Assembly: GCA_030390025.1 (NCBI GenBank)
Contig: CM059446.1
Coordinates: 54,560,001-54,624,000 of the forward strand
Direction: 5' to 3'
DNA length: 64,000 bases
From: Squalus acanthias
Lineage: Eukaryota
Shown here: piece after piece, positions 10,240 to 53,962 of the stretch
How positions within the stretch are numbered: the stretch's first letter is position 1
Layout: each line of letters opens with the position of its first letter
Made by a program: the position numbers and the translations under genes
Notes under the pieces: generated by a model
Told to the model about the DNA's origin: nothing
The model's database searches: none
What the model saw: the letters and a program-made list of their open reading frames with translations, nothing else

Positions 10240-10726
10240 GTGTCAGTCGTGGCTCAGTGGGTAGCACCCTCACCTCTGAGTCAGAAGGTTGTGGGCTCAT
10301 AGTCCCACTCCAGAGACTTGAGCACATAAATCTAGGCTGACACTCCCACTCCAGTGCTGAGGGAGTGCTGCACTGTCGAAGGTGCCGTCTTTCGGATGAG
10401 ACGTTAAACAGAGGCCCCGTCTACTCTCTCAAGTGGATGTAAAAGATCCCGTGGCACTATTTCGAAGAAGAGCAGGGGGAGTTATCCCCGGTGTCCTGGG
10501 GCCAATATTTATCCCTCAACCAACATCACTAAAAAACAGATTATCTGGTCATTATCACAATGCTGTTTGTGGGAGCTTGCTGTGCGCAAATTGGCTGCCG
10601 CGTTTCCGACATTACCACAGTGACTACACTTTAAAAAAAAAAGTACTTAATGGGCCGTAAAACACTTTGGGACGGCCTGAGGTTGTGAAAGGCGCTATAT
10701 AAATGCAAGTCTTTTCTTTTCTTTTT
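10240..10726 (+). mobile_element. tRNA-derived DeuSINE (SacSINE1-like), full length
   Basis: A-box tggctcagtggg, central Deu domain, L2-like tail ggcgctatataaatgcaagtc, flanking ctttttc duplication. Confidence 0.88.
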
Positions 10727-11809: not shown

Positions 11810-12426
11810 TTCTTTTTTTTTATTCGTTCCTGGGATGTGGGCGTCGCTAGCAAGGCCAGCATTTATTGCCCATCCCTAGTTGCCCTCGAGAAGGTGGTGG
11901 TGAGCTACCGCTGCAGTCCGTGTGGTGATGGTGCTCCCACAGTGCTGTTAGGGAGGGATTTCCAGGATTTTGACCCAGCGTCGATGAAGGATCGGTGATA
12001 TATTTACAAGTCAGGATGGTGTGTGACTTGGAGGGGAACTTGGAGGTGGTGGTGTTCCCATGCGCCTGCTGCCCTTGTCCTTCTAGGTGGAAGAAGTCGC
12101 GGGTTTGGGAGGTGCTGCCGAAGAAGCCTTGGAGAGTTGCTGCAGTGCATCTTATAGATGGTGCACACTGCAGCCACGGTACGCCGGTGGTGGAGGGAGT
12201 GAATGTTTAAGGTGGTGGATGAGGTGCCAACCAAGCGGGCTGCTTTGTCCTGGATGGTGTCGAGCTTCTTGTGTGTTGTTGGAGCTGCACTCATCCAGGC
12301 AAGTGGAGAGTATTCCGTCACACTCCTGACTTGTGCCTTGTAGATGGTGGAAAGGCTTTGGGGAGTCAGGAGGTGAAACACTTGCCGAATACCCAGTCTC
12401 TGACCTGCTCTTGTTGCCACAGTATG
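11810..12426 (-). mobile_element. CR1-group (Zenon-like) LINE 3' fragment
   Basis: IYKAQVRSV.EYSPLAW…LDTIQDKAARL…SLHHRRTVAA. Confidence 0.85.
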
Positions 12427-13073: not shown

Positions 13074-15189
13074 GTAAGTGGTTGTCGCATGGTCGCTCTT
13101 CTGTAACTCGTGGCGTGCACAGGGATGGCTGTTCCCCCGTTGTGTGTGGATTGGTCGCTGCGCTTGACGTGTGCCTTCACTTCGACTGACACCTGAAATG
13201 ACTCCATTCCTGGGTGACGACCGAAGCCTGCTGCACTCGCACTGAAATAAATTGCACACCTTGGATCCAGCCGTGCTGGCTGGCTGTACAAAGCAAAGTC
13301 CTGTTGGACAGTGTTGGATGACTCCTGGATAGCTGAAGACACGTTGAAGGTGACTTCACTGCTCCAGGCTTCTACACACATTAATCCCAAATACATTCGA
13401 CAATACCAATTGCAGCGTTGAAACTGACGTGCTGTACAATGAGGCTTTTCTGGTGCTGTTCTTTACCAAAACTGCTGTTTAACCCATTACATAAATAGGA
13501 CAGTGATCCTACACATATTTACTTGGAAGCAAAGCTGCTTTACCGTGGCATCAATACAAAGAGTGTGGCATAACTTGGGTGTGAAATCTATACCCAGAGA
13601 GTGTTTAGAATGTGGAACTTGCTACCACAAGGAGTAGTTGAAGCGAATCACATGGATGCATTTAAGGGGAAGCTACATAAGCACATGAGGGAGAAAGGGA
13701 TAGCGGTTATGCTGATGTGATTAGATGAACTAAGGTGGGAGGAGGCTTGTGCGGAGCATAAACACTGGCAGGGACCAGTTGGGCCAAATGGCCTGTTTCT
13801 AATTTGGAGATACTGTGTCGTCATCTCAAGTTGTATTTGGACAACAACTTAGTTATATTGCCTCTTTAACACCGCCAAATGTCCCAAGGTGCTTCACAAA
13901 GATGGGGCGTGATGAAAAGGTCTTTGAGCTAAGATTAGAGGAGGCGTTGAGGGAGTTGACCAACGGTGTGATTGAAGAAGAGGGTTTTTAAGGATGCATT
14001 GAGATGAAGCAAGTGTTCAGGAAGATAATTTCAGACCAGAGGGTGATGGCTGCAGTCGGTCACTGACGGTGGAGAGAATAGGGTCGGGGACATGTCGTCA
14101 GTCAGCATCAGAGGCCCTGAGGGTGCAAGTTGGGTTGTTGGAGGAGTTGATGTAGTCTCACACCACTACTACATGGCACGGGCTATCCTGTATCTGTAAC
14201 CACCAACCAGCCAAGTTTAGAAAGCTCCCAGTCTGTTAATTCAACGTCAGTTTTTGACATTAAAACCCAACTGCCCCGTCATATTAACACTGAACCAACA
14301 GTTAAATATGCAGTGCTCCATTTTCATTGGCTAGACAGCCATGTGGAAACAAGAATTTGATGCCAATTTTCCTGGTCCCAAGTCATTTTAGGCACTTTTC
14401 GATTGCCTATTTTATTTTTTCAGAATCCTCCATTCCCAGCCTGGTGGCGTGCCAATCTTTGTCGGCCAAGACTGAAGCCCCCCCCCCCCCCCCCCATTTA
14501 CTTTGCTGCAATGATACCGTAATAACTTAATCTGACATGTTTAACTCCGTGTCAAGCCTCCATTTTATACAGGCAGCGACACTGTTTGTGCTGAGAGAGA
14601 AAGCAGATGATCAGCTGACGGGGAAGAGTGAGGAAAAGGAACAGACCAAGAAAAATGAAAATCGAGCCCCGACCGAGCGTGAGGGGGGAGGTGGCGGAAA
14701 GAAATCTTGCCAGTTGTATCGTAGAAAAAAAGTGAAAGTAGCGAAGTGGAGAAAGTCGAAGCTGCTCAGCTAAGTCCTAGTTAGGGGAGCTGCAGTCCGT
14801 CTGGGTTGATGGTGATCCAGGGAGTGGTGAAAATCAATCTGTGCCTGAGCTGTGGGAGGCTCCTGCCAGGAGAGTGTAACCTGTCCCAGCAGAGAAGTTA
14901 TATAAAGAAACCATCTCCACCCCAGCCGCTCGTGTAACACCAACTCTTTTATTTTTTAAAAATCAAAGGAGAAAATGATGGAAACGGCAGCTCCTGGAAG
15001 AGAAGAGAGGCTAATGTTTTGACTTGGCACGTGATGTTTTACGCTATTTAATAAGTAGATGATTTAGTGGCGATCCTACCTATGTTCGAGTATGCAGTGT
15101 GTACTGGTATGCACTCTTAAGCATGTTGACTCAATGCACTCGTTTATGAGGAACGGCCACCTTGGAAAAGGCGCCAGGAGACTGCCAGC

Positions 15190-15680
15190 ACCTGGAGGGA
15201 GTGCAGCGAAGATTCACCAGACTGATACCTGGGATGGCAGGAATGACGTATGAAGAGAGATTGGGTTGATTAGGCTTATATTCGCTAGAGTTTAGAAGAA
15301 TGAGAGGGGATCTCATTGAAACTTATAAAATTCTAACAGGACTAGACAGACTAGATGCAGGAAGGATGTTCCCGATGGCGGGGGAGTCCAGAACCAGGGG
15401 TCACAGTCTAAGGATAAAGGGGTAAGCCATTTAGGACTGAGATGAGGAGGAATTTCTTCACCCAGAGAGTGGTGAACCTGTGGAATTCTCTACCACAGAA
15501 GGCAGTTGAGGCCAATTCATTAAATATATTTATTTCTTAAGGCTAACGGGATCAAGGGATATGGGGAGAAAGCAGGGACAGGGTACTGAATTTGGATGAT
15601 CAGCCACGATCTCATTAAATGGTGGAACAGGCTCGAGGGGCCGAATGGCCTACTCCTGCTCCTATCTTCTATGCTTCTAT
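15190..15680 (+). mobile_element. CR1 LINE 3' fragment
   Basis: Near-identical to 41042-41440; RRNFFTQRVVNLWNSLP region and tail. Confidence 0.9.
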
Positions 15681-16739: not shown

Positions 16740-18060
16740 ACATGAAATCTACAGCACCGAAACAGGCCATTGGGCCCAACTGGTCTGAGCCAGCATTAAT
16801 GCTCCACATGAGGCTCTGATTACCTCGTCCCACCCTGTCCATCCCTTCTACCCCATGTCTGCATCAAGCCTCCCCTTCAATAAGCAATGCTATCTGCCTC
16901 AACCACTCCATGTAGCATTGAGTTTCACGTTCTTACCACTCTGGTAAAGAATGTCCTCCTAAATTGATTGGTGAGTGGCTATCTTACATTTATACCCCCT
17001 TGTTCTGGACTCTCAAACATGCGGAAACAGTTTCTCCACATCCACCCGATCAAACCCTTTCATAATTTTAATGACCTTCTCTTAGTCTTCTCTTTTCCAG
17101 AGAAAAGAGCCCCCACCTGCTCAAGTGTCGGCTGTGGCTCAGTGGGTAGCACTCTCGCCTCTGAGTCAGAAGGTTGTGGGTTCGAGTCTCACTCCAGAGA
17201 CTTGAGCGCAAAAATCTCGGCTGACACTCCAGTGCAGTGCTGAGGGAGTGTTGCACTGTTGGAGGTGCCGTCTTTCAGAGGAGATGTTAAACCGAGGCCC
17301 CGTCTGCTCTCTCAGGTGGACGTAAAAAACCCATGACACTATTTTGAAGGAGAGCAAGGTGGGTTCTCCCTGGTGCCCTGACCAATATAAATCCCTCAAT
17401 CAACATCACTTGGAAAAAAAAATAGATTATCACATTGCTTTTTGTGGGAGCTTGCTGTGCGCAAATTGGCTGCCATGTTTCCGACATTACAACAGTGACT
17501 ACACTTCAAAAAGCACTTCGTTGGCTGTAAAGCGCTTTGGGACGTCCTGAGGTTGTGAAAGGCGCTGTAGAAATGCAAGTTGTCGTCGTCTTCAATCTTT
17601 CCTGATAGTTGCATCCTCTCCATTCTGCTAACATCCTTGTAAATCTTTTCTGCATGTTCTCCAGTACTTCAATATCCTTTATGTTGTATGGAGATTGGAA
17701 GAGCGCGCAATACTCCCAAGTGTGGTCGAACCAAGGTTCTAGATAAACTTAACATTATCTCCCTGCTTTTATATTCTATTCCTCTAGAAATGAACCCCAG
17801 CATTTTGCTCTCTTTATGGCCTTATTAACTTGTGATTTTCAATGATTCATGTATCTGTATTCCCAGATCTTTTTGTTCCTCTACCCCATTCAGATGCTTA
17901 TTTTCCCAGGAGTAGGTGGCCTCCTTATTCCTCCTGCCAAAATGAACCATCTCACACTTGGCTGCATTGAAATGAATTTGCCGTTTATACCGTCCACTTT
18001 GCAAGCCTGTTCATGTCATCCTGTATTTTACCAGATGGTAACTGACCTGTTTATTTTCTG
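16740..18060 (-). mobile_element. Old CR1 fragment split by a SINE
   Basis: Degenerate similarity to 52690-54380 on both sides of the 17125-17590 SINE. Confidence 0.72.
17125..17590 (+). mobile_element. SacSINE1-like SINE, full length
   Basis: A and B boxes (ggttcgagtc), Deu domain, tail. Confidence 0.88.
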
Positions 18061-19744: not shown

Positions 19745-21670
19745 CCAACGTGGCTAACTAAAGAAGTTAAGGATAGCATTAGATTGAAAGAAGAAGCTTA
19801 TAATGTTGCAAAGAATAATAGTAAGCCTGAGGATTGGGAGAGTTTCAGAAACCAGCAAAGGTTGACCAAAAAATTGATAAAAAGGGAAAAAATAGAATAT
19901 CAGAGAAAACTAGCAAGAAATATAAAAGCAGATTGTAAAAGCTTCTAGAAGTATGTAAAAAGGAAGAGAGTAGCAAAAGTAAACATTGGTCCCTTAGAGG
20001 CTGAGACAGGAGAAATTATTGTGGGGAATAAGGAAATGGCAGAAACATTAAAATATTTTGTATCTGTCTTCACAGTAGAAGACACAAAAAGCGTACCAAA
20101 AATGGTGGGGAACCAAGGGTCTAATGAGGGTGAGGAACTTAACGTAATGAACATAAGTAGAGAAAAAGTACTAGAGAAACTAATGGGACTACAAGCCGAC
20201 AAATCCCCTGGACCTGACGGCCTACATCCTAGGGTTCTGAAAGAGGTGGCTGAAGAGATAGTGATTGCATTGGTTTTGATCTTCCAAAATTTCCTAGATT
20301 CTAGAACGGTCCCAGTGGATTGGAAGGTCGCAAATGTAACACCGCTATTCAAGAAAGGAGGGAGAGAAAAAACAGGGAACTACAGGCCAGTTAGCCTGAC
20401 ATTAGTTATCGGGAAAATGCTGGAATCCATTGTTAAGGAAGTGGTATCAGGGCACTTAGAAAATCATAACATGATTAAGCAGAGTCAACGTGGTTTTATG
20501 AAAGGGAAATCGTGTTTGACAAATTTCTTGAGTTTTTTGAGGATGTACCTAGCAGGGTAGATAAAGGGGAACTAGTGGATGTAGTATATTTGGATTTCCA
20601 AAAGGCATTCAATAAGGTGCCACATAAAAGGTTATTACACAAGATTAGGACTCATGGGGTTGGGGGTAATATAGTAGCATGGATAGAGGATTGGTTAACG
20701 GAAAGAAAACAGAGTAGGGATAAACTGATCTTTTTCAGGTTGGCAGGCTGTAACTAGTGGGGTGCCGCAAGGATCAATGTTGGGGCCTCAGCTATTTGCA
20801 ATCTATATTAATGACCTAGATGAAGGGACCGCGTGTAATGTATCCAAGTTTGCTGATGATACAAAGCTAGGTGGGACAGTAAGCTGTGAGGAGAACACAG
20901 AGTCTGCAAAGGGATATAAATAGACTAAGTGAGTGGGCAGTAAGGTGGCAGATGGAATATAATCCTCGTGCAAGAAACACAGAAAGCTCGCATGCAGGTA
21001 CAGCAAGCAATAAGGAAGGCAAATGGCATGTTGGCCTTTATTGCAAGGGGGTTGGAGTATAAGAGTGAGGAAGTCTTGTTGCAATTGTACAGGGCCTTGG
21101 TGAGACCACACCTGGAGTACTGTGCACAGTTTTGGTCTCCTTACCTAAAGAAGGATATACCTGCCTTGGAGGCGGTGCAACAAAGGTTCACTAGATTGAT
21201 TCCTGGGATGAGAGGGCTGTCCGATGATGAGAGATTGTGTAGAATGGGCCTATACTATCTGGAGTTTAGAAGAATGAGAGGTGATCTCATTGAAACATAC
21301 AAGATTCTGAAGGGGATTGACAGGGTAGATGCTGAGAGGTTGTTTCCCCTGGCTGGAGTGTCTAGAACTAGGGGGCATAGTCTCAGGATAAGGGGTTGGC
21401 CATTTAAGACTGAGATGAGGAGGAATTTCTTCACTCAGAGGGTTGTGAATCTTTGGAATTCTCTGCCCCAGAGGGCTGTGAATGCTGAGACTTTGAGTAT
21501 ATTCAAGGCTGAGATAGATAGACTTTTGGACTCTAGGGGAATCGAGGGATATGGAAATCGGGCGGGAAAGTGGAGTTGAGGTCGATGATCAGCTATGATC
21601 TTATTGAATGGCGGAGCAGGCTCGAGGGGCTGTATGGCCTACTCCTGCTCTTATTTCTTATGTTCTTATG
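19745..21670 (+). mobile_element. CR1 LINE 3' portion (RT, C-terminus, 3' UTR)
   Basis: KSPGPDGLHPRVLKE, YLDFQKAF, LVRPHLEYCAQFWSP, RVVNLWNSLP; internal deletion near 20960. Confidence 0.95.
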
Positions 21671-22932: not shown

Positions 22933-23210
22933 TTAAAAATTTGGTATTTAATGTGCAGCTATTTTCAACTAACTGCATACAGCTGTCACTCATACAAACA
23001 CTTCTCAGTCAGAGGGAACCGTCGAGCAGTTTCACATACTTGACTGTGGTTACAGCGTTGCACCAATCGCAGTACATCTGCCTCCTCAAATGAAGACAGA
23101 CCTTTCATTAAGAGAACTTTGTCAACAACAAGTATAAAATTTGTATGCGTTTTGAAGTTCAGCAGTTGCAGTATCCCATTTTGTGTATTGTGCCTGTCAA
23201 GTAGAGCAAG

Positions 23211-23933
23211 AATGAGAAGTCGCACAACACCAGGTTATAGTCCAACAGTTTTATTTAAAATTACGAGCTTTCGGAGCGCTGCTCCTTCTTCAGGTACAAG
23301 TACAGTGAGGGAATACAAATCAGCAGTATATATACACAGAGAGCAATTTGTCTGCAGAGATACAATCTGTTAGGAAGGCATTACATCAGAGTACAGCTAA
23401 GACAATGAGGTGGGTCACAGGGGGTCCAACGTGTCAAATGTTGCTGTCTGCAGTTGAGCTTTTAACTTTTTTTTGGTTGTTTTTTTTTTGTGTTTTTTTT
23501 AAAACTGGAAAGACAGACAACGATGTCGAGTCACATTCTGTAGCGTGACATGTCACGCTACAGAACGTGACTCGACATCGTTGTCTGTCTTTCCAGTTTA
23601 AAAAAAACACAAAAAAAAACAACCAAAAAAAAAGTTAAAAGCTCAACTGCAGACGGCAACATTTGACACGTTGGACCCCCTGTGACCCACCTCATTGTCT
23701 TAGCTGTACTCTGATGTGTCTTTGATGTAATGCCTCCCTAACAGATTGTATCTCTGCAGACAAATTGCTCTCTGTGTATATATACTGCCGATTTGTATTC
23801 CCTCACTGTACTTGTACCTGACGAAGGAGCAGCGCTCCGAAAGCTCGTAATTTTAAATAAAACTGTTGGACTATAACCTGGTGTTGTGCGACTTCTCATT
23901 TTTGTCCACCCCAGTCCAACACCGGCATCTCCG
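23211..23933. mobile_element. Fold-back (palindromic) non-autonomous Penelope-like element, family A copy 1
   Basis: Arms 23211-23550 and 23551-23900 are near-perfect inverted repeats with no loop (gtgaca|tgtcac). One-sided tail 23901-23933. TSD caagtagagcaag at 23198-23210 and 23934-23946. Hammerhead core and AATAAA in each arm. Confidence 0.85.
23814..23850 (+). ncRNA. Minimal type I hammerhead ribozyme motif (mirror copy on - strand at about 23261-23297)
   Basis: tac-CTGACGA-a-GGAGC agc GCTCC-GAAA-GCTC-gta: conserved CUGANGA and GAAA core, 5-bp stem II, palindromic AGCT in place of stem III, short stem I. Confidence 0.72.
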
Positions 23934-24039
23934 CAAGTAGAGCAAGGAAAGAGGTGCCTGGACTTGTGTGCTTTGTTTAATTAAAGGAGTGCCTTGACAA
24001 TTTTAAGAGTTTTCTACCTCAACAGTTGACTAAATACCT

Positions 24040-25330
24040 TGGTGCGCTGGCGACGCGACTGAGCTTATTGCACAAAGTTTTGGAACTCCCTTGAGTTAAC
24101 TGGCAGTCCAGTTGGCTATAATCACACTTGGAACAGTGCGATGTGTCGAATGAGTTTTCATCCCTCTTTTATCGGACGATCTATCTATTTCAAAGAAATC
24201 ACTGGCCTTTTTGGTATTTGGACAATAAGCAATTCCTTTCTCTGTTTCGCTTGAAACTTCTTGCACAACATATCGTACCAAGTCTCCATCTCCTTGCTCA
24301 CCAGAGGCCAGGAAATCACTTCCTCATCGTCAACCCTTCTGGTCACGTGAGGTAGCTCAGCTTGTCGGCAAGGACCATTTCCTTGCTGCTCTTGGAGACC
24401 GCGTCAAATTTGTAATTTTGAAGATGCGGTATAATTCTCCGGAGCCTTTTGGATGCGCTAGTTAGACTCTTTCGAAATGGTTTCAAGCTGTTCAATCACA
24501 TTTCATGGTGATTTTCTTTCCATAGATGCGCTATTTGAATTTCTGCAAACCTAAAACGACTTAGCACAATTTATCTCTCGTTTTTGTGAGAGATCGCGAA
24601 GCGTAAGCCGCCTGCTGACCTTGCTGCATAAAATAGGCTATCGCCCTCTTTCACATTGTATAAATCTCATTGTAGAACTGCATCCCTACTGACGCCAAGG
24701 TATTTTCATCCTAGTGCTTCCGCGGTGATCTTCTAGATCTCATCCAGGCACCTCTCCTACTGTCGGTCCCATGTAGAGTCAGCGTTTTTCAGTAAGTCAT
24801 GAAGCGGACCAGTTACCTCTGAGAACTTGGTAGCAAACTGATGCAGATAGTTATCCCAGGCATTCTGTGGATACCTTTATTATAATAGGTGAGAGAAGGC
24901 ATCGTCAGCACTGCTTAAACTTCAGCGGGACCTGGTCTTAGTCCTTCAGAGAGATGATGATCCACCAATTTCACTTGTTTTATTCTCGATCAGCGTGTGA
25001 CACCTTTTTCGTTGGCAGCACTTCAACAGGACTTCCAGTTTCCAATTTTGTGATCCTGGCTCTCTTCAACAGATTAGAATGTCTTCTCTCACGCCAGCCA
25101 GTCCCTCCCTGACTCTCCAATACCTCATGAATTCTTCTGTGAAATTCTTCAGGAGCTGGGAACGTTCCAAAAGATATGCAGCATCATCTGTGCCTCCTAA
25201 CTGGTGATGAAAAGGTAGCTGGCATTGGGTAATTGGAGTAGCACTTCTGATCTCTCTTAGCTGCTTAATGAGATGTGATGAATCTCGTGATTGTCCCATA
25301 TTCTCCTGAAGCTTTTCCAGTGGTTTGCTT
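24040..25330 (-). mobile_element. Decayed Gypsy/Ty3 LTR-retrotransposon pol fragment (RT, RNase H, integrase)
   Basis: Minus-strand translations across frameshifts give APEEFHRRIHEVLE and EDILI (RT), AYASRSLT and LQNYKF…KEMVLADKLS (RNase H), DFFEIDR and SREFQNF (integrase), in Gypsy order. Confidence 0.75.
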
Positions 25331-25847
25331 GTTCACCTGCCAACTCTAGTTTTGCTGAGAACGGCTGCATTCCTGATCCTTAACATCTTGATTATTACTT
25401 CTGCTGAAACAGTCACTCAGAGCATGATTCAGTCAAACAAATCAGCACACGACCTGTAAGTGATCAGTCCAGAGTGGTGAGCTATAAAGCACATGGAACT
25501 CCAGGTTTTCTGGTTTTAAATATATTCCTTTTTCCCCCCCTCTTTCTGTATCGCCTTTTAGAACGTTCTGATAGAAGTGGAAGTAGTTTGTTGAATCTGA
25601 CGCAACGTAGTATTTGTTATTAACGTCAGCCGATAACAAATGAGAAAAAACTTTATAACCTAAAAATGTGCTGTTTGGTGATCGGCCATTTTCAGCTAAC
25701 TGCATGCAGCTGTTACTCATGCTTCCGCAGCGCAGGGAACAGTGAGGGAACTTTTTATGCTTGACTGGATACAAGGCTACACCAAATACTGATCCAGCCT
25801 TCGAACCATTCACCCTTCTGAAGCAGTTAATCGACTTAATACTCACT

Positions 25848-26095
25848 TACCAACTCAGAGGGTTATGAATCTTTGGAGCTCTCTACCCCAGAGGGCTGTG
25901 GAGGCTCAGTCATTGAGTATATTCAAGACAGAGATTGATTGATTTTTGAATATTAAGGGAATGAAGGGATATGGGGATAGTGCAGGAAAGTGGAGTTGAG
26001 GTAGAAAATCAGCCATGATCTTATTGAATGGCGGAGCAGGCTCGAAGGGCCAAATGGCCGACTCCTGCTCCTATTTTTTATGTTCTTATGTTATG
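25848..26095 (+). mobile_element. CR1 3' end (similar short ends at 280-391, 11430-11505, 13590-13810, 33230-33505)
   Basis: gatcagccatgatcttattgaatggcggagcaggctcga tail motif. Confidence 0.85.
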
Positions 26096-26498
26096 TTAAC
26101 TAACTTGGTTTGTGATTGGTATACATAGTTATTTTGATGGATGAAGGTGAAAAACACCGTAATGTTCAGGACACTTTGTAACAGTCAGCAAGTTCTGCAC
26201 AACTACAGAAATTCAAATTTAATTTTCTTTATTTCCAATAAACAAATAGATGTTTTGGTTTTCTAAGTGGACTGATCTGTCGCTGACCTCCGTTACTTTA
26301 GGGAAGGGGGCATTGAGGCAAAAATGTCAGCCCAAGCCAGTGCCTCCCTCCTGCCCTACAACTGAAGCTGTTGTACATTGCAACCAGGAGAGTGTCACAG
26401 ACTTAAAAACAGCATCAATTGAAATCCATTTTGGGGTGTAATTATTTTTTTGGGAATGTCCAAGATGAGGGTTCCATCTGCAGTGCTTAATTTTAAAT

Positions 26499-27345
26499 GT
26501 GAGAAGTCGCACAACACCAGGTTATAGTCCAACAGTTTTATTTGAAATCACAAGCTTTCGGAGCGCTGCTCTTCGTCAGGTGAAGTGAAGAAATACAAAT
26601 CGACAAAGCATATATAGACAGAGAACAATGCCTGTGCAGCGTACAATGTCAGACGACTACAGTTAATCTTTCTGACTGCCTTTTATCACACCTCGGTAGA
26701 GAGACAATCAGGTCAGTCAGGAAGACATTATATCAAAGACATAGCAAATACAACTAAGCCAATGAGGTGGGGTCACAGGGGGTCTAATGTGTCAGATGCT
26801 GCAGTCTGTATGGAGAACCATAAACTTTAAACTTTTTACTTTTTTTTTACTGGAAATCACATCTGTGAACAAGCCAACGACGACTCGAGTCTGGATGACT
26901 CTACGTCATCCAGACTCGAGTCGTCGTTGGCTTGTTCACAGATGTGATTTCCAGTAAAAAAAATAAAAAGTTTAAAGTTTATGGTTTTCCATACAGACTG
27001 CAGCATCTGACACATTAGACCCCCTGTGACCCCACCTCATTGGCTTAGTTGTATTTTGCTATGTCTTTGATATAATGTCTTCCTGACTGACCTGATTGTC
27101 TCTCTGCCGAGGTGTGATAAAAGGCAGTCAGAAAGATTAACTGTAGTCGTCTGACATTGTACTCTGCACAGGCATTGTTCTCTGTCTATATATGCTTTGT
27201 CGATTTGTATCTCTTCACTTCACCTGACGAAGGAGCAGCAGCCCCGAAAGCTTGTAATTTCAAATAAAACTGTTGGACTATAACCTGGTGTTGTGCGACT
27301 TCTCACTTTTGTCTACCCCAGTCCAACACTGGCATCTCCGCATCA
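26499..27345. mobile_element. Fold-back (palindromic) non-autonomous Penelope-like element, family A copy 2
   Basis: Arms 26499-26899 and 26905-27306 with 5-nt loop tctac. Tail 27307-27345. TSD taattttaaatg at 26488-26499 and 27346-27357. Same termini as copy 1. Confidence 0.85.
27220..27256 (+). ncRNA. Minimal hammerhead ribozyme motif (mirror copy on - strand at about 26548-26583)
   Basis: cac-CTGACGA-aggagcagcagcccc-GAAA-GCTT-gta; stem II carries a mismatch in this arm. Confidence 0.6.
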
Positions 27346-27355
27346 TAATTTTAAA

Positions 27356-27786
27356 TGAGTCAGAAGGTTGTGGGTTCAAGTCCCACTCCAGGGACTTGAG
27401 CACATAAATCTAGGCTGACACTCCAGTGCAGTGCTGAGGGAGTGCTGCACTGTTGGAGGTGCCGTCTTTCGGATAAGACATTAAACCGAGGCCCCGTCTG
27501 CTCTCTCAGGTGGCCGTAAAAGATCCCGCGGCACTATTTCGAAGAAGAGCAGGGGAGTTATCCCCGGTGTCCTGGCCAATATTTGTCCCTCAATCAACAT
27601 AACAAAAACAGATTAACTGCTCATTATCACATTGCTGTTTGTGGGAGCTTGCTGTGCGCAAATTGGCTGCCGCATTGCCTACATTACAACAGTGACTACA
27701 CTTCAAAAGTACTTAATAGGCTGTAAAGCGCTTTGAGATGTCCGGTGGACGTGAAAGACGCTGTAGAAATGCAAGTCTTTTCTTTC
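27356..27786 (+). mobile_element. SacSINE1-like SINE, 5' truncated
   Basis: Starts tgagtcagaagg at the right TSD of palindrome 2. Confidence 0.88.
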
Positions 27787-29326
27787 TAAAATTTGTCTTC
27801 TGTGTTTTGATTTTAAAAAAACTATCTTTGGAGGAGTTGGATACATCCTGATCAAGATGCTGAGCAGTGGGAGGAGATACATCAATGCTTGAATTGATCG
27901 ATTCTAGATGAACCTAAAAACTCTTCTGAAAGTGAACGAGTCCCTGATGGCTCAATGAGTGAATGCTTGAGATAGTTTCATGTCCCTACTGATGTTCTGG
28001 CTGAGATCTGCAGACCACTGCTGGATCCTGGGACCTTCCTGGTCTGTGTGTGGCTCAGTCGCACCCTGGGCAATGCGTTCACCTATCGACCGGTATATTA
28101 ACAGTAGAAACTACAATTGTGATTGGCTCTTTGGGTAGTTGTTTTGTGATCCTGAATAGGTCACTTTCACCCTGCCTCTTCCCTGCACCCCCCATCCTGT
28201 TCCTCTTTTCCTCTAGTTCGGATGACCATTTTTGTCCTCTGACCAGAAAAACAGTCCAAGATGTCTTTCCATACAGGGTAGGTACAGCAGAGATGTAGGT
28301 TGTGGAAGTTATGAATGCAACTGAACCTGATGTTTGAGTTCCTCTTCCACCTTGCTCATCATGCCCCCCTCCCCAGCCAAAGCAATTCTCTTTTCAAGCC
28401 ATTCTCCACAAAACTTGATATCTTTAAGTTTCATTTTGGTTTGAAAAAAGTCTACTTTATGTTTTATCAAATTTGAAACGTCCTCGGCTTCACTGACTGT
28501 CGGTGCCACTTTCCCCGCTTCAGCACTCCCTACATCCGCGTGTCGAGCTACAGGTTTTGTGCGGAGTCCCCCCGAAAGCTGTGAGGAGTTGAGGAGGGGG
28601 TGGCGAGGGCGAGAGTTGTTGAGAGCGGACATGCATATCGCACTCCTGTGAGATGCTCTCTGAAATTTACAGTGTTTGAAAAGGCCCCATCTTCCACACA
28701 AACGTTCAGGCACCTAAAACGTTAAACAGTTATTGTATTTGGAAACAGCATTAAATAGAAGAAAGGACAGCGCTTGCATTTTTTTTGGCTAGAATTAGAA
28801 TTTTTTTGTGTCCTTGGGGGGTAGTATTTTGTACGGTTGGGAGGCGAGGGAGGTGGGGTGGCGGGGGGGTGTTGGAGCATTTTGCTAAGAAGACAAATTT
28901 TTCCATGTTTAAGGCTGGGCAGTTTATACGTAAATAGTGTTTAATACTCTCAAAGTATCATATTTCGGTCTTTCTGAATTGAATCATTGTTGAGTCTATA
29001 GTGTTACGGTTACCTCCCAAACTCGGTGCTCTTGCCAAGCAGCAGGACGTTGTTTGAGCAGCAGCGGTGTTATTAAGCCAGTAACTGAGGCACGTTGGCA
29101 GCCTGTAAACTAGTCACAAGCTGCCACGTAAACTCCTTCCCTCACTCATGGCGCGTTTTCTTTTCTGATAATTAAAATGTTGGAGTTCGTTCAGTAGCTG
29201 CGATTAAAAGCGATCCATTCTCTCCATAAATTTTCAAACGGCTTGTGTAAAAGGTGCGTTTTGCCATTTGTAATCTTTATCCACTGTATATTGTATCTCC
29301 GTGGTTCTCAACGTGTTGGTCAGAAC

Positions 29327-31377: not shown

Positions 31378-33210
31378 GAACATAAGAAATAGAAGCTGGA
31401 GTAGGCCATTTGACCCTTTGAGCCTGCTCCACCATTCAACAAGATCATGACTGATCTTTGACCTCAAATCCACCTTCCCGCACTATCCCCATATCCCTTA
31501 ATTCCCTTAGTTCCCAAAATTTTATTGACCTCTGTCTTGAATATACTCAACGACTGAGCAGCCACAGCTTTCTGGGGTAGAGAATTCCAAAGATTCACAA
31601 CCCTTTGAGTGAAGAAATTTCTCCTCATCTCAGTCCTAAATGGCTGATCCCTTATTCTGAGACTGTGACCCCGTGTTCTAGATTCCCCAGGCAGGGGAAA
31701 CATTTTCTCAACCTTAACCCTGTCAAGCCCCTTAAGAATTTTATGTGTTTCAATTAGATCACCTCTCATTCTTCTAAACTCTAGGGAATATAGGCCTAGT
31801 CTACTCAATCTCTCCTCATAGGGCAATTACCTCATCCCAGGAACCAGTCTAGTGAATCTTCGCTGCACTCCCTCTAAGGCAAGTTTGTCTTTCCTTAGGT
31901 AAGGAGACCAGAACTGTACACAGTTCTCCAAGTGTGGCCTCACCAATGCCCTGTATAATTGTAGTAAGACTTCTTTACTCTTATATTCTAATTCCTTTGT
32001 AAAAAAAAAAGCTAACATACCATTTGCTTTCCTAATTGCTTGCTGTACCTGCATGTTAACTTTCTGTGATTCATGTACAAGGACACCCAGGTCCCTCTGA
32101 ATGCAAACATTTCCCAGTCTCTCTACATTCAAAAAATATTCTGCTTTTTTGTTTTTCCTACCAAAGTGGATAACTTCACACTTCCCCACATTGTATTACA
32201 TTTGCCATGTTCTTGCCCACTCAGTCAACCTGTCTATATCTCTCTGCAGCCTCTTTGCGTCCTTCTCACAGCTTACTTTCCCACCTAACTTTGTATCATC
32301 GGCAAACTTGGATATGTTACACTCAGTCCCTTCATCTAAGTCATTAATATAGATTGTAACTAGCTGAGGCCCAAGCACTGATCCTTGCGGTACCCCGCTA
32401 GTTAGAGCCTGCCAACCCAAAAAAGTCCCATTTATTCCTCCTCTGTTTTCTGTCCATTAACCAATCCTCAATCCATGCTTATATATATTACCCCCAATCC
32501 CATGAGTCCTAATTTTGTGTAATAACCTCTTGTGTGGCACTTTATCGAATGCTTTTTGAAAATCCAAATACATTACATCCACTGGTTCCCCCTTATCCAT
32601 CCTACTAGTTACATCTTCAAAAAACTCCATAACAGATTTGTCAAACACGATTTCCCTTTCATAAAACCATGTTGACTCTGTCTAATCATATTATGATTTT
32701 CTAAGTGTCCTGTTACCACGTCCCTAATAATAGATTCTAGCATTTTGCCTACTACTGATGTCAGGCTACCTGGCCTATAGTTCCCCGTTTTTTTCCTCTT
32801 ACTCCTTTCTTAAATAGCGGCATTATGTTTGCTACCTTCCAATCCTTGGGCACTGTTCTAGAATCTAAGGAACTCTGGAAGATTAATACCAGTGCATTCA
32901 CTATCTCTGCAGCTACCTCTTTTAAAAACCTAGGATTTAGGTAGTCAGGTCCAGGGGATTTGTCGCCACTTAGTACCATTAATTTCTCCAGTACTATGTC
33001 TTTACTTATACTGATTTCTTTAAGTTCCTCATTCTCTCTAGACCCTTGGTTCTCCATTATTTCCGGAATATTTTTTTGTGTCTTCTACCGTGACATTTGT
33101 TTAATGTCTCTGCCATTTCCTTATTGCCCATTATAATTTCTCCTGTCTCTGCCTCTAATGGGCCCACGTTTACTTTCACTAATCTTTTTCTATTTACATA
33201 CCTATAGATC
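31378..33210 (-). mobile_element. CR1 LINE 3' portion, same subfamily as 1558-4853
   Basis: ORF track 31464-33057 gives CR1 RT motifs almost identical to the 1558-4853 copy. Confidence 0.95.
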
Positions 33211-49662: not shown

Positions 49663-50913
49663 GGGCCAAATCTTGCTGGTGCAGGGCATCTTGCGGTGCA
49701 TGCCGTTCGACTTTTTCCTACGCCCTTCAGCGCGAAAATTTTTTGCTACGTAACTTGCTGGAAGTGCGAGCTGATAACGGCACTGTGAGGGCAACGGGGA
49801 CATCTGGGACCTTAGTGATTGACAGGACCAACAGTCTATCTCCTTAACTCATGAGATTTAAGGATCGAGTGTCTCACCTCCTGACTCCCCAAAGCCTTTC
49901 CACCATCTACAAGGCACAAGTCAGGAGTGTGATGGAATACTCTCCACTTGCCTGGATGAGTGCAGCTCCAACAACACTCAAGAAGCTCGACACCATCCAA
50001 GACAAAGCAGCCCGCTTGATGGGCACCCCGTCCACCACCTTAAACATTCACTCCCTCCACCACCGGCGCACCGTGGCTGCAGTGTGTACCATCTACAAGA
50101 TGCACTGCAGCAACTCGCCAAGGCTTCTTCAGCAGCACCTCCCAAACCGGTGACCTCTACCACTTAGAAGGACAAGGGCAGCAGGCGCATGGGAACACCA
50201 CCACCTCCAAGTTCCCCTCCAAGTCACACACCATCCTGACTTAGAAGTATATCGCTGATCCTTCATCGTCGCTGGGTCAAAATCCTGGAACTCCCTCCCT
50301 AACAGCACTGTGGGAGTACCTTCACCACACGGACTGCAGCGGTTCAAGAAGGCGGCTCACTACCAACTTCTCAAGGGCAACTAGGGATGGGCAATAAATG
50401 CTGGCCTTGCCAGCGACGCCCACATCCCATAAACAAATTTTTTTTTTAAAAAGCAGCGTAATGGAGAGAAGGAAGGTGAATTAGAGTTAAATCAGATACA
50501 GAAATAAAGAGAGGGAAAGAAAGATTGGATTAAGACAGAGAAAAAAGAGACAATGGAAAAGTAATAAAAAGAAAATTAAATTTGACATTTTCATAATCTC
50601 TCTCAACAATTTACTACATACAGGAATAAGACTCAACAGGTTAAATTGTTTCCTTTCTGGACCGGAGAGATTGATCCCTAAATTTGTGTGGTGAGTTTAA
50701 TGAGCAATCAGTGTGCCAATCCAGCAAGTTCTTAAAAATAACGAGGAGGCTGAGTCGAGATGCTGTTTGTGCGAAGCAAACGGTGGAGCTACGTAAATCG
50801 ACTGGCGACTCACGGCGTATCTCTTCATCCCCTGAACTCACTGGCCGTTTTGCGCATTATTAACGGCGTGCGACGTTAACTTGCCGTTTATTTTCCCAGG
50901 AAGATTTGGCCCC
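49663..50913. mobile_element. Harbinger-like MITE of a second family, split by a LINE insertion
   Basis: GGGCCAAATCTT…AAGATTTGGCCC TIRs flanked by gtg. Confidence 0.68.
49863..50450 (+). mobile_element. CR1-group (Zenon-like) LINE 3' fragment
   Basis: Same peptide as 11810-12426; inserted in a MITE. Confidence 0.85.
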
Positions 50914-53182: not shown

Positions 53183-53962
53183 TATTTTTATTTGTTTATG
53201 GGATTAGGGCGTCGCTGGCAATGCCAGCATTTATTGCCCATCCCTAGTTGCCCTTGAGAAGGTGGTGGTGAGCCGCCTTCTTGAACCGCTGCAGTCCGTG
53301 TGGTGAAGGTACTCCCACAGTGCTGTTAGGGAGGGAGTTCCAGGATTTTGGCCCAGCGACCATGAAGGATCGACGATATACTTCCTAGTCAGGATGGTGT
53401 GTGACTTGGAGGGGAACTTGGAGGTGGTGGTGTTCCCATGCGCCTGCTGCCCTTGTCCTTCTAGGTGGAAGAGGTCGCGGGTTTGGGAGGTGCTGCCGAA
53501 GAAGCCTTGGCGAGTTGCTGCAGTGCATCTTGTAGATGGTACACACTGCAGCCACGGTACGCCGGTGGTGGAGGGAGTGAATGTTTAAGGTGGTGGATGG
53601 GGTGCCAATCAAGCGGGCTACTTTGTCCTGGATGGTGTCGAGCTTCTTGAGTGTTGTTGGAGCTGCACTCATCCAGGCAAGTGGAGAGTATTCCATCACA
53701 CTCCTTACTTGTGCCTTGTAGATAGTGCAAAGGCTTTGGGGAGTCAGGCGGTGAGACACTCGCCACAGAATACCTAGCTTCTGACCTGCTCTTGTTGCCA
53801 CAGTATTTATGTGGCTGGTGCAGTTAAGTTTCTGGTTAATGGTGATTCCCAGGATGTTGATAGTGGGGGATTCGGCGATGGTGATGCCATTGAATGTCAA
53901 GGGGAGGTGGTTAGACTCTCGCTTGTTGGAGATAGTCATTGCCTGGCACTTCGTGGCACGAA
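53183..53962 (-). mobile_element. CR1-group (Zenon-like) LINE 3' fragment
   Basis: 196-aa ORF 53385-53975 with the same motifs. Confidence 0.85.

Follow-up and report, generated by a model that had tools for sequence, protein, structure and literature searches.

A minimal hammerhead motif in the terminal repeats of an abundant Penelope-like element in the genome of the shark Squalus acanthias

Minimal hammerhead ribozymes (min-HHRs) in Penelope-like elements (PLEs) are already known, as are the inverted layout, the one-sided tail and the target-site duplication (TSD) of these elements. As described in the parts of the papers drawn on here, the min-HHRs of Schistosoma occur as opposite-strand pairs 100–700 bp apart, and single min-HHR motifs did not cleave whilst dimers cleaved weakly (Cervera and de la Pena, 2014, PMC4209133). 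PLE palindromes have been attributed to self-priming (Arkhipova et al., 2013, PMC3846280), and a CX2-5CxxC linker 5' of the GIY-YIG domain is common to the Neptune and Nematis types (Craig et al., 2021, PMC8557442). In PAc, a Poseidon element of Anolis carolinensis, unprocessed RNA is reported as the main template, and the hammerhead as needing protein and as not required for in vitro insertion (Frangieh et al., 2024, PMC11167929). How inverted ends are formed, and what the hammerhead does in vivo, are questions addressed in several of these studies (PMC4209133, PMC11167929, PMC3846280).

Here we analyzed a 64-kb stretch of S. acanthias DNA (the window) together with the genomic relatives of one insertion within it, copy 1. 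Read directly from the plus strand, positions 23814-23850 form a minimal type I hammerhead (GTAC, CTGACGA, A, GGAGC-AGC-GCTCC, GAA, AGCT, C, GTAA; Table 1). A minus-strand copy begins at 23293 with CTGAAGA, N7 being the sole difference within the motif. An earlier reading made from the letters alone (the sequence-only reading) had described a minimal hammerhead in both arms of copy 1, with CTGACGA on the right and CTGAAGA on the left, an AGCT palindrome replacing stem III and a predicted CUC cleavage triplet, all of which we found in place. Finding the motif undamaged in both arms, as it remarked, carries little weight: the arms are young, with 94% identity from end to end (palindrome 23207-23904, center near 23550). 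The cut that it predicted at 23846 agrees with ours, and the one that it placed at 27252 in the neighboring insertion, copy 2, falls instead after 27253, at a CUU triplet. Stem I of copy 1 has just 3 bp (UAC/GUA), and stem II in the right arm of copy 2 contains an A-C mismatch (GGAGC/GCCCC).

A loose pattern (CUGANGA..GAAA) had 21 matches in the window, four of which are these motifs. The 56-nt motif alone folded no better than shuffled sequences (z 0.27). A search with hammerhead models, proposed with the sequence-only reading, did not recover the motif: Rfam covariance models returned no hammerhead match, either at the gathering score or at E ≤ 10. Rfam matches to miRNAs were dismissed as reflecting the long hairpin only.

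Table 1. Coordinates of the two head-to-head insertions and of the hammerhead parts in the window.
Feature	Position	Strand	Basis or remark
Copy 1: head-to-head insertion, two 5'-truncated PLE ends	23211..23933	.	
Copy 1 TSD, 13 bp	left 23198..23210, right 23934-23946	+	
Left (tail-less) arm hammerhead motif	23261..23297	-	N7 = A
PLE ORF, last six codons (MSRYRT) + stop	23550..23570	+	palindrome center; same C-terminus in long copies
TATA-like box (23777-84) + Inr-like TCACT, 5' of ribozyme	23777..23809	+	predicted promoter/start site
Right (tailed) arm hammerhead motif	23814..23850	+	N7 = C; family covariation
Stem I, 5' strand, GTAC	23814-17	+	sequence read
Core CTGACGA	23818-24	+	sequence read
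Extra A	23825	+	sequence read
Stem II GGAGC / loop AGC / GCTCC	23826-30 / 23834-38	+	5 bp
GAA	23839-41	+	sequence read
AGCT	23842-45	+	self-complementary, replaces stem III
H17 = C	23846	+	predicted cut 23846/23847, triplet CUC
Stem I, 3' strand, GTAA	23847-50	+	sequence read
AATAAA, putative polyadenylation signal	23856..23861	+	sequence read
One-sided PLE tail, ~30 nt	23905..23933	+	
Copy 2: independent head-to-head insertion, other subfamily	26500..27345	.	layout as copy 1
Copy 2 TSD, 12 bp	26488-99 / 27346-57		
Copy 2 left-arm motif	26546..26583	-	one G absent at base of stem II
Copy 2 right-arm motif	27220..27257	+	weak stem I; predicted cut after 27253

Other repeats are also present in the window. 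Copy 2 sits at the edge of a SINE-like repeat copy, and two diverged copies of one repeat (22950-23030 and 25690-25770, by eye) flank the region. SINE-like repeat copies (27356-27750, 17124-17580, 10336-10690) and LINE 3' ends (15149-15680, 21037-21670, 31378-33076), which we take to be HE1 and HER1/CR1-like, are numerous. Two 573-nt inverted arms (49866-50438 and 53190-53762; 96% alike, with 2.75 kb between them) are related to 11907-12382, and the only open frame inside has 188 aa.

Genome-wide, one 29-nt form of the ribozyme had 21,135 exact matches against 0 for a reversed control, and the motif therefore represents a family far beyond chance. A ribozyme-independent anchor had 5,069, 4,592 and 6,808 matches with three of the 16 flank dinucleotides, which extrapolates to roughly 85,000 arms. 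Palindromic insertions at L142 and L048/L049 were duplicated together with their flanks (tandem or segmental duplication), so that these counts are slightly inflated. Arm lengths and junctions vary from locus to locus, and we therefore rejected a non-autonomous palindrome family of fixed form, whether MITE-like or retrozyme. Many insertions lie inside other repeats at recurring AT-rich sites, with the same flank after several unrelated copies, which suggests a target preference.

Longer genomic copies extend upstream of the copy 1 sequence into a reverse transcriptase (RT), a CX4CxxC linker and a GIY-YIG endonuclease, and the hammerhead of both copy 1 and these long copies lies in the pLTR. 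An 895-aa frame at L311 matched RVT_1 (E 1.6e-8). GIY-YIG was recognized by motif (YLIRC..WYIGET); the query frame itself had no Pfam GIY-YIG match, and PF01541 was found on several of its homologs. The best homologs are shark proteins with 80–92% identity, followed by turtle and marine invertebrate proteins. A shark gene model named as an epn2 isoform (P0026) contains part of the element ORF, by exonization or as an annotation artefact. The single ORF with RT and C-terminal GIY-YIG (CCHH), the 5' truncation, the inverted pLTR, the one-sided tail and the TSD are the features of an EN+ PLE, and the linker PCHGKLCKTC, which fits CX2-5CxxC, assigns the element by sequence to the Neptune/Nematis type. 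It is young or recently active and very abundant in the shark genome. No full pLTR-ORF-pLTR source element was found among nine long loci. Judged from the ends of copies, the likely start codon is ~90 nt 3' of the cut, at the tail end.

Conservation of the ribozyme was assessed in 141 arms gathered through the ribozyme-independent anchor, of which 118 had a recognizable motif and nearly all the others were truncated, and in 28 haplotypes (27 seen at least twice, plus the window's own). All the positions that define a minimal hammerhead are present (C3-U4-G5-A6-N7-G8-A9, G12-A13-A14-A15.1 and U16.1-H17), with an extra nucleotide between 9 and 10.1 (A23825). Across the 28 haplotypes no change was seen in GAAAGCT, in stem II pairs 1 and 2 or, save for U4C in three, in the core; G10.1-C11.1 was GC in 28/28, and AGCT, which forms palindromic 15.1-16.1 without a helix III loop, was likewise unchanged in 28/28. 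N7, in contrast, took all four bases, H17 was C or T, and loop II ranged from 3 to 9 nt. Stem cells were paired in 96.4%, a level that 0/500 shuffles reached, with stem I pair 2 as CG in 13, UA in 14 and UG in one haplotype, and stem II pair 5 as CG in 25, UA in two and UG in one. The pLTR location, core and covariation thus support the proposed PLE minimal hammerhead with a palindromic AGCU for stem III, and the core was kept across subfamilies, where a lack of preferential core conservation had been named in advance as telling against a ribozyme. Conservation and covariation remain short of proof, because the haplotypes are related by descent, with few independent covariation events, and the pattern used to collect them demanded a near-match to the core and allowed just one mismatch in the AGCT stretch. 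A U4C subfamily (CCGACGA; 7/118 arms; L062, L068/L137, L082, L125), which also has a compensatory U-A pair in stem II, has spread, which shows that copies can multiply with a non-canonical core.

The ends of truncated arms were compared with the predicted start and cut sites. Of 136 arms, 34 end 3–10 nt before C3, and three (two independent) at the predicted cut. The end pile-up falls at an Inr-like TCACTTC, ~30 nt downstream of a TATA-like box, an arrangement like that of rotifer pLTRs (PMC3846280). The start A was preceded by a non-family G 3,857 times genome-wide, against 577 times by A, and one base further upstream the G:A ratio was 56:44 (first 100 of 1,102, counted by eye). All 30 of the G loci inspected depart from the family sequence at the start A, and many of the extra-G junctions could also owe their G to the partner arm (microhomology) or to the target. 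This comparison was run on TCAC subfamilies; in the subfamily of copy 1 this stretch carries a short duplication, and the start site of copy 1 is taken from its sister subfamilies. LINE RTs copy the cap, and by analogy the simplest reading of the extra G would be that the RNA template was uncut and that RT continued to its cap, which would agree with unprocessed RNA being the main template in PAc.

A weaker signal was present at the cut itself. Arms ending there numbered 220, against 79, 137 and 113 at three neighboring positions; after normalization for pattern stringency these became 782 against 281, 325 and 268, a roughly 2.7-fold excess. Among 30 cut-site loci, seven were explained by stem I GT/GTGA microhomology and two were small indels, whilst three have both arms ending no more than one base from the cut. 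The excess is suggestive of a trace of cleavage. Inspection by eye of the first 50 of 659 short-centered insertions revealed no dominant class of palindromes with the cut site at their center. The idea that the minor N7 allele marks arms ended at the start site was unsupported, 23/50 C arms and 13/31 A arms being short.

Folding predictions bear on what the motif could do within copy 1. Masking of each motif by its own antisense arm, which the sequence-only reading had proposed, was reproduced in these predictions: for copy 1 the motif pairs with that arm at P 0.97 on either strand, and for copy 2 at P 0.89, and the duplex is predicted at -73 kcal/mol against -2.5 to -4.3 for AGCU:AGCU. Whichever strand is transcribed, the antisense arm precedes the sense motif, and the hammerhead in copy 1 is predicted to be silenced in this way. 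The same figures weigh on the suggestion that 23818 and 27224 form a cis pair of motifs within a host pre-mRNA and cut its intron. Both motifs are on the plus strand, 3.4 kb apart, both carry AGCU, and tandem min-HHRs can cleave weakly as dimers (PMC4209133). Against these points stand the stability of own-arm pairing, a further predicted pairing of the copy 1 motif with the left arm of copy 2 (-60), cofolding of the two motifs that gave no AGCU dimer, and the mismatched stem II of copy 2. The two insertions also come from different subfamilies, and neighbors of this kind are common in so dense a family. Nor could the intron and gene strand assumed for them be confirmed, as no host exon, intron or spliced joint was found around them in the frames and contigs examined: the 125 longest non-repeat frames (of 358 listed from positions 5 to 50 kb of the window) had no Pfam match, and contigs of four sequencing runs over 23648-29250 reflected repeat coverage, with no supported spliced joint among the 15 listed. 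We therefore regard a cis dimer that cuts a host intron as highly improbable. A catalytically dead relic, kept through overlap with promoter-downstream or protein-binding signals, would fit the observations that most arms reaching the motif include it uncut, that a U4C subfamily exists, and that the hammerhead is dispensable in vitro in PAc (PMC11167929). It sits poorly with a pattern in which variation falls at N7, H17 and loop II and the invariant positions are those of the catalytic core, with the covariation of stems I and II, and with the modestly raised number of ends exactly at the cut; we consider it quite unlikely.

The origin of the mirror arms was examined through differences between them. 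Paired insertions nearly always combine one tailed and one short arm, and their junctions were mostly microhomology joins (first 50 of 659, by eye). If a single cDNA folded back and primed itself, the arms would differ through later mutation or through short gene conversion from abundant older copies. Such an origin would suit the finding that the arms of a pair share a subfamily (mean distance 1.2, against 6.3 between loci; 21/51 pairs identical), as well as the tendency of N7 and loop II changes to go toward abundant older alleles. Even so, 17/50 pairs differ at non-CpG variants known from other loci, eight of them at two or more (of the three flags that the copy 1 locus contributed to this count, one was false; an 11-bp deletion flagged as shared at that locus proved private). 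In the window's own subfamily N7 is C in 53 arms and A in 395. We recovered 52 of the C arms, and the 26 with a ribozyme-bearing inverted partner represent 25 insertions, 20 of which are N7-discordant, the partner having A, just as at copy 1. What the partner carries is consistent with random pairing (5/25 against 0.12, p 0.21), which argues against simple fold-back or copying of one arm from the other. A partner was present for 10 of the 25 distinct A arms in the sample, and each of these partners was also A. In the N7-discordant pairs the upstream background was mostly concordant (read by eye), and discordance was denser in the hammerhead (15/1,546 sites) than upstream of it (14/5,603); both would favor fold-back followed by conversion. 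GGA loops were concordant in three pairs, which likewise counts against a pure two-RNA reading. An adjacent marker, GTGA, was however co-converted in 0/8 C arms, discordant pairs were no more diverged than concordant ones (1.6% and 1.6%, n 6 and 16), and at L214 N7 differs despite no upstream difference over a 353-nt overlap. Either arm of a pair can moreover be the longer, which also speaks against fold-back. On these grounds we hold the fold-back origin to be unlikely, though deserving of some weight. A nearest-neighbor test of arm origin, which flagged 10/31 pairs, was set aside as noisy, private mutations being enough to trigger its flags.

Another source of discordance would be a single RNA behind both cDNAs, with RT erring repeatedly where the ribozyme is structured, at N7 and loop II. 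Loop II is prone to slippage (AGC/AGCA/AGCC), all four combinations of two loop sites were found, N7 = C occurs on two upstream backgrounds, and PLE hammerheads are unusually variable (PMC4209133). Errors of this kind would, however, have to take N7 only to C (8/100) and never to G or T, to reproduce three linked differences ([C, AGC] against [A, GGA]) in five insertions, and to leave room for L210 and L216, which differ at 5–8 upstream sites as well; this gives them little probability. Taken together, the arm differences point, with some reserve, to separate templates at insertion, either two RNAs or the two pLTRs of one RNA. A literature search that covered chiefly freely accessible articles turned up no two-template model for Penelope inverted ends and, on this subject, only the self-priming account (PMC3846280). 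If confirmed, two templates would replace that account and would give a dimer-only ribozyme a role.

The motif is very probably a minimal hammerhead belonging to the terminal repeat of a Neptune-like Penelope element that is abundant and has been active recently, and it likely serves the element rather than the host; we propose an insertion scheme as part of this explanation. The anatomy of the insertions, the size of the family, its link to an ORF with RT and GIY-YIG, and the conservation of the motif with covariation are its observed part. In the scheme, the element RNA would start at the Inr-like A ~7 nt before the core and would be capped. RT would start internally at two sites, giving the short end and the tail end, and two cDNAs would be made independently, one on each nicked target strand. 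Usually RT would copy uncut RNA up to the cap and leave an extra G; alternatively, it may stop at random upstream when copying a downstream pLTR. The two cDNA ends would then be joined head to head, mostly by microhomology. The ribozyme itself probably cleaves slowly, only as an AGCU-paired dimer or with the help of protein, which would explain why a minority of arms end at the cut site.

A bolder extension, which we put forward as speculative and rather doubtful, is that Penelope integrates as a complex of two RNAs joined through the AGCU palindrome, which could instead join both terminal repeats of a single RNA. Each partner would prime cDNA on one target strand, and the ribozyme would be mainly a site of pairing and strand transfer and would cut a minority of capped RNAs. 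This would resemble retroviral dimer linkage, and the cap-G ends, cut-site ends and allele-discordant arms of the shark genome would then be its fossils, open to counting. The ribozyme of copy 1 is of a known kind, unremarkable and probably masked, and the family matters more: being young and having tens of thousands of arms, it provides countable evidence on the start site, on uncut templates, on a trace of cleavage and on arms that are not copies of each other.

Set beside the described systems, as far as the parts of those papers drawn on here extend, the shark element resembles the min-HHRs of PMC4209133 in its pLTR location, CUGANGA core, extra base between 9 and 10.1, G10.1-C11.1, palindromic 15.2-16.2, lack of loop 3, short helix I and many variable families per genome. 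It differs from them in having a helix II of 5 bp. Those sections report neither a shark family nor cleavage evidence from mapped genomic ends, and a literature search for shark examples returned a single review. Animal non-LTR retrozymes (bioRxiv 10.64898/2026.07.22.740005) likewise have a type I hammerhead and are related to PLE pLTRs, but they are direct tandem repeats, whereas the shark copies are dispersed stumps, solo or inverted and of variable length, that run into a coding element. A retrozyme identity was accordingly rejected, as direct tandem repeats of a hammerhead monomer are absent and the copies are solo or head-to-head. With PAc (PMC11167929) the element would share two internal RT start sites that give rise to the tail, cutting and extension of both target strands, a predicted protein dimer and uncut RNA as main template. 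PAc, however, belongs to the Poseidon clade and its ORF begins in stem II, whereas the shark element has the Cys linker of the Neptune/Nematis type; the PAc work, in those parts, does not compare the two arms of inverted insertions. The layout is that of the EN+ PLEs with inverted pLTRs (PMC3846280, PMC8557442), with head-to-head 5'-truncated copies, a one-sided 30–40-bp tail, a TSD and a TATA box plus Inr-like TCACT in the pLTR. In contrast to what self-priming (PMC3846280) would lead one to expect, the shark arms often carry different alleles and either may be the longer. To these systems the genomic fossils analyzed here appear to add a pile-up of ends at the start site with an extra G, a weak excess of ends at the cut site, and arms discordant at N7.
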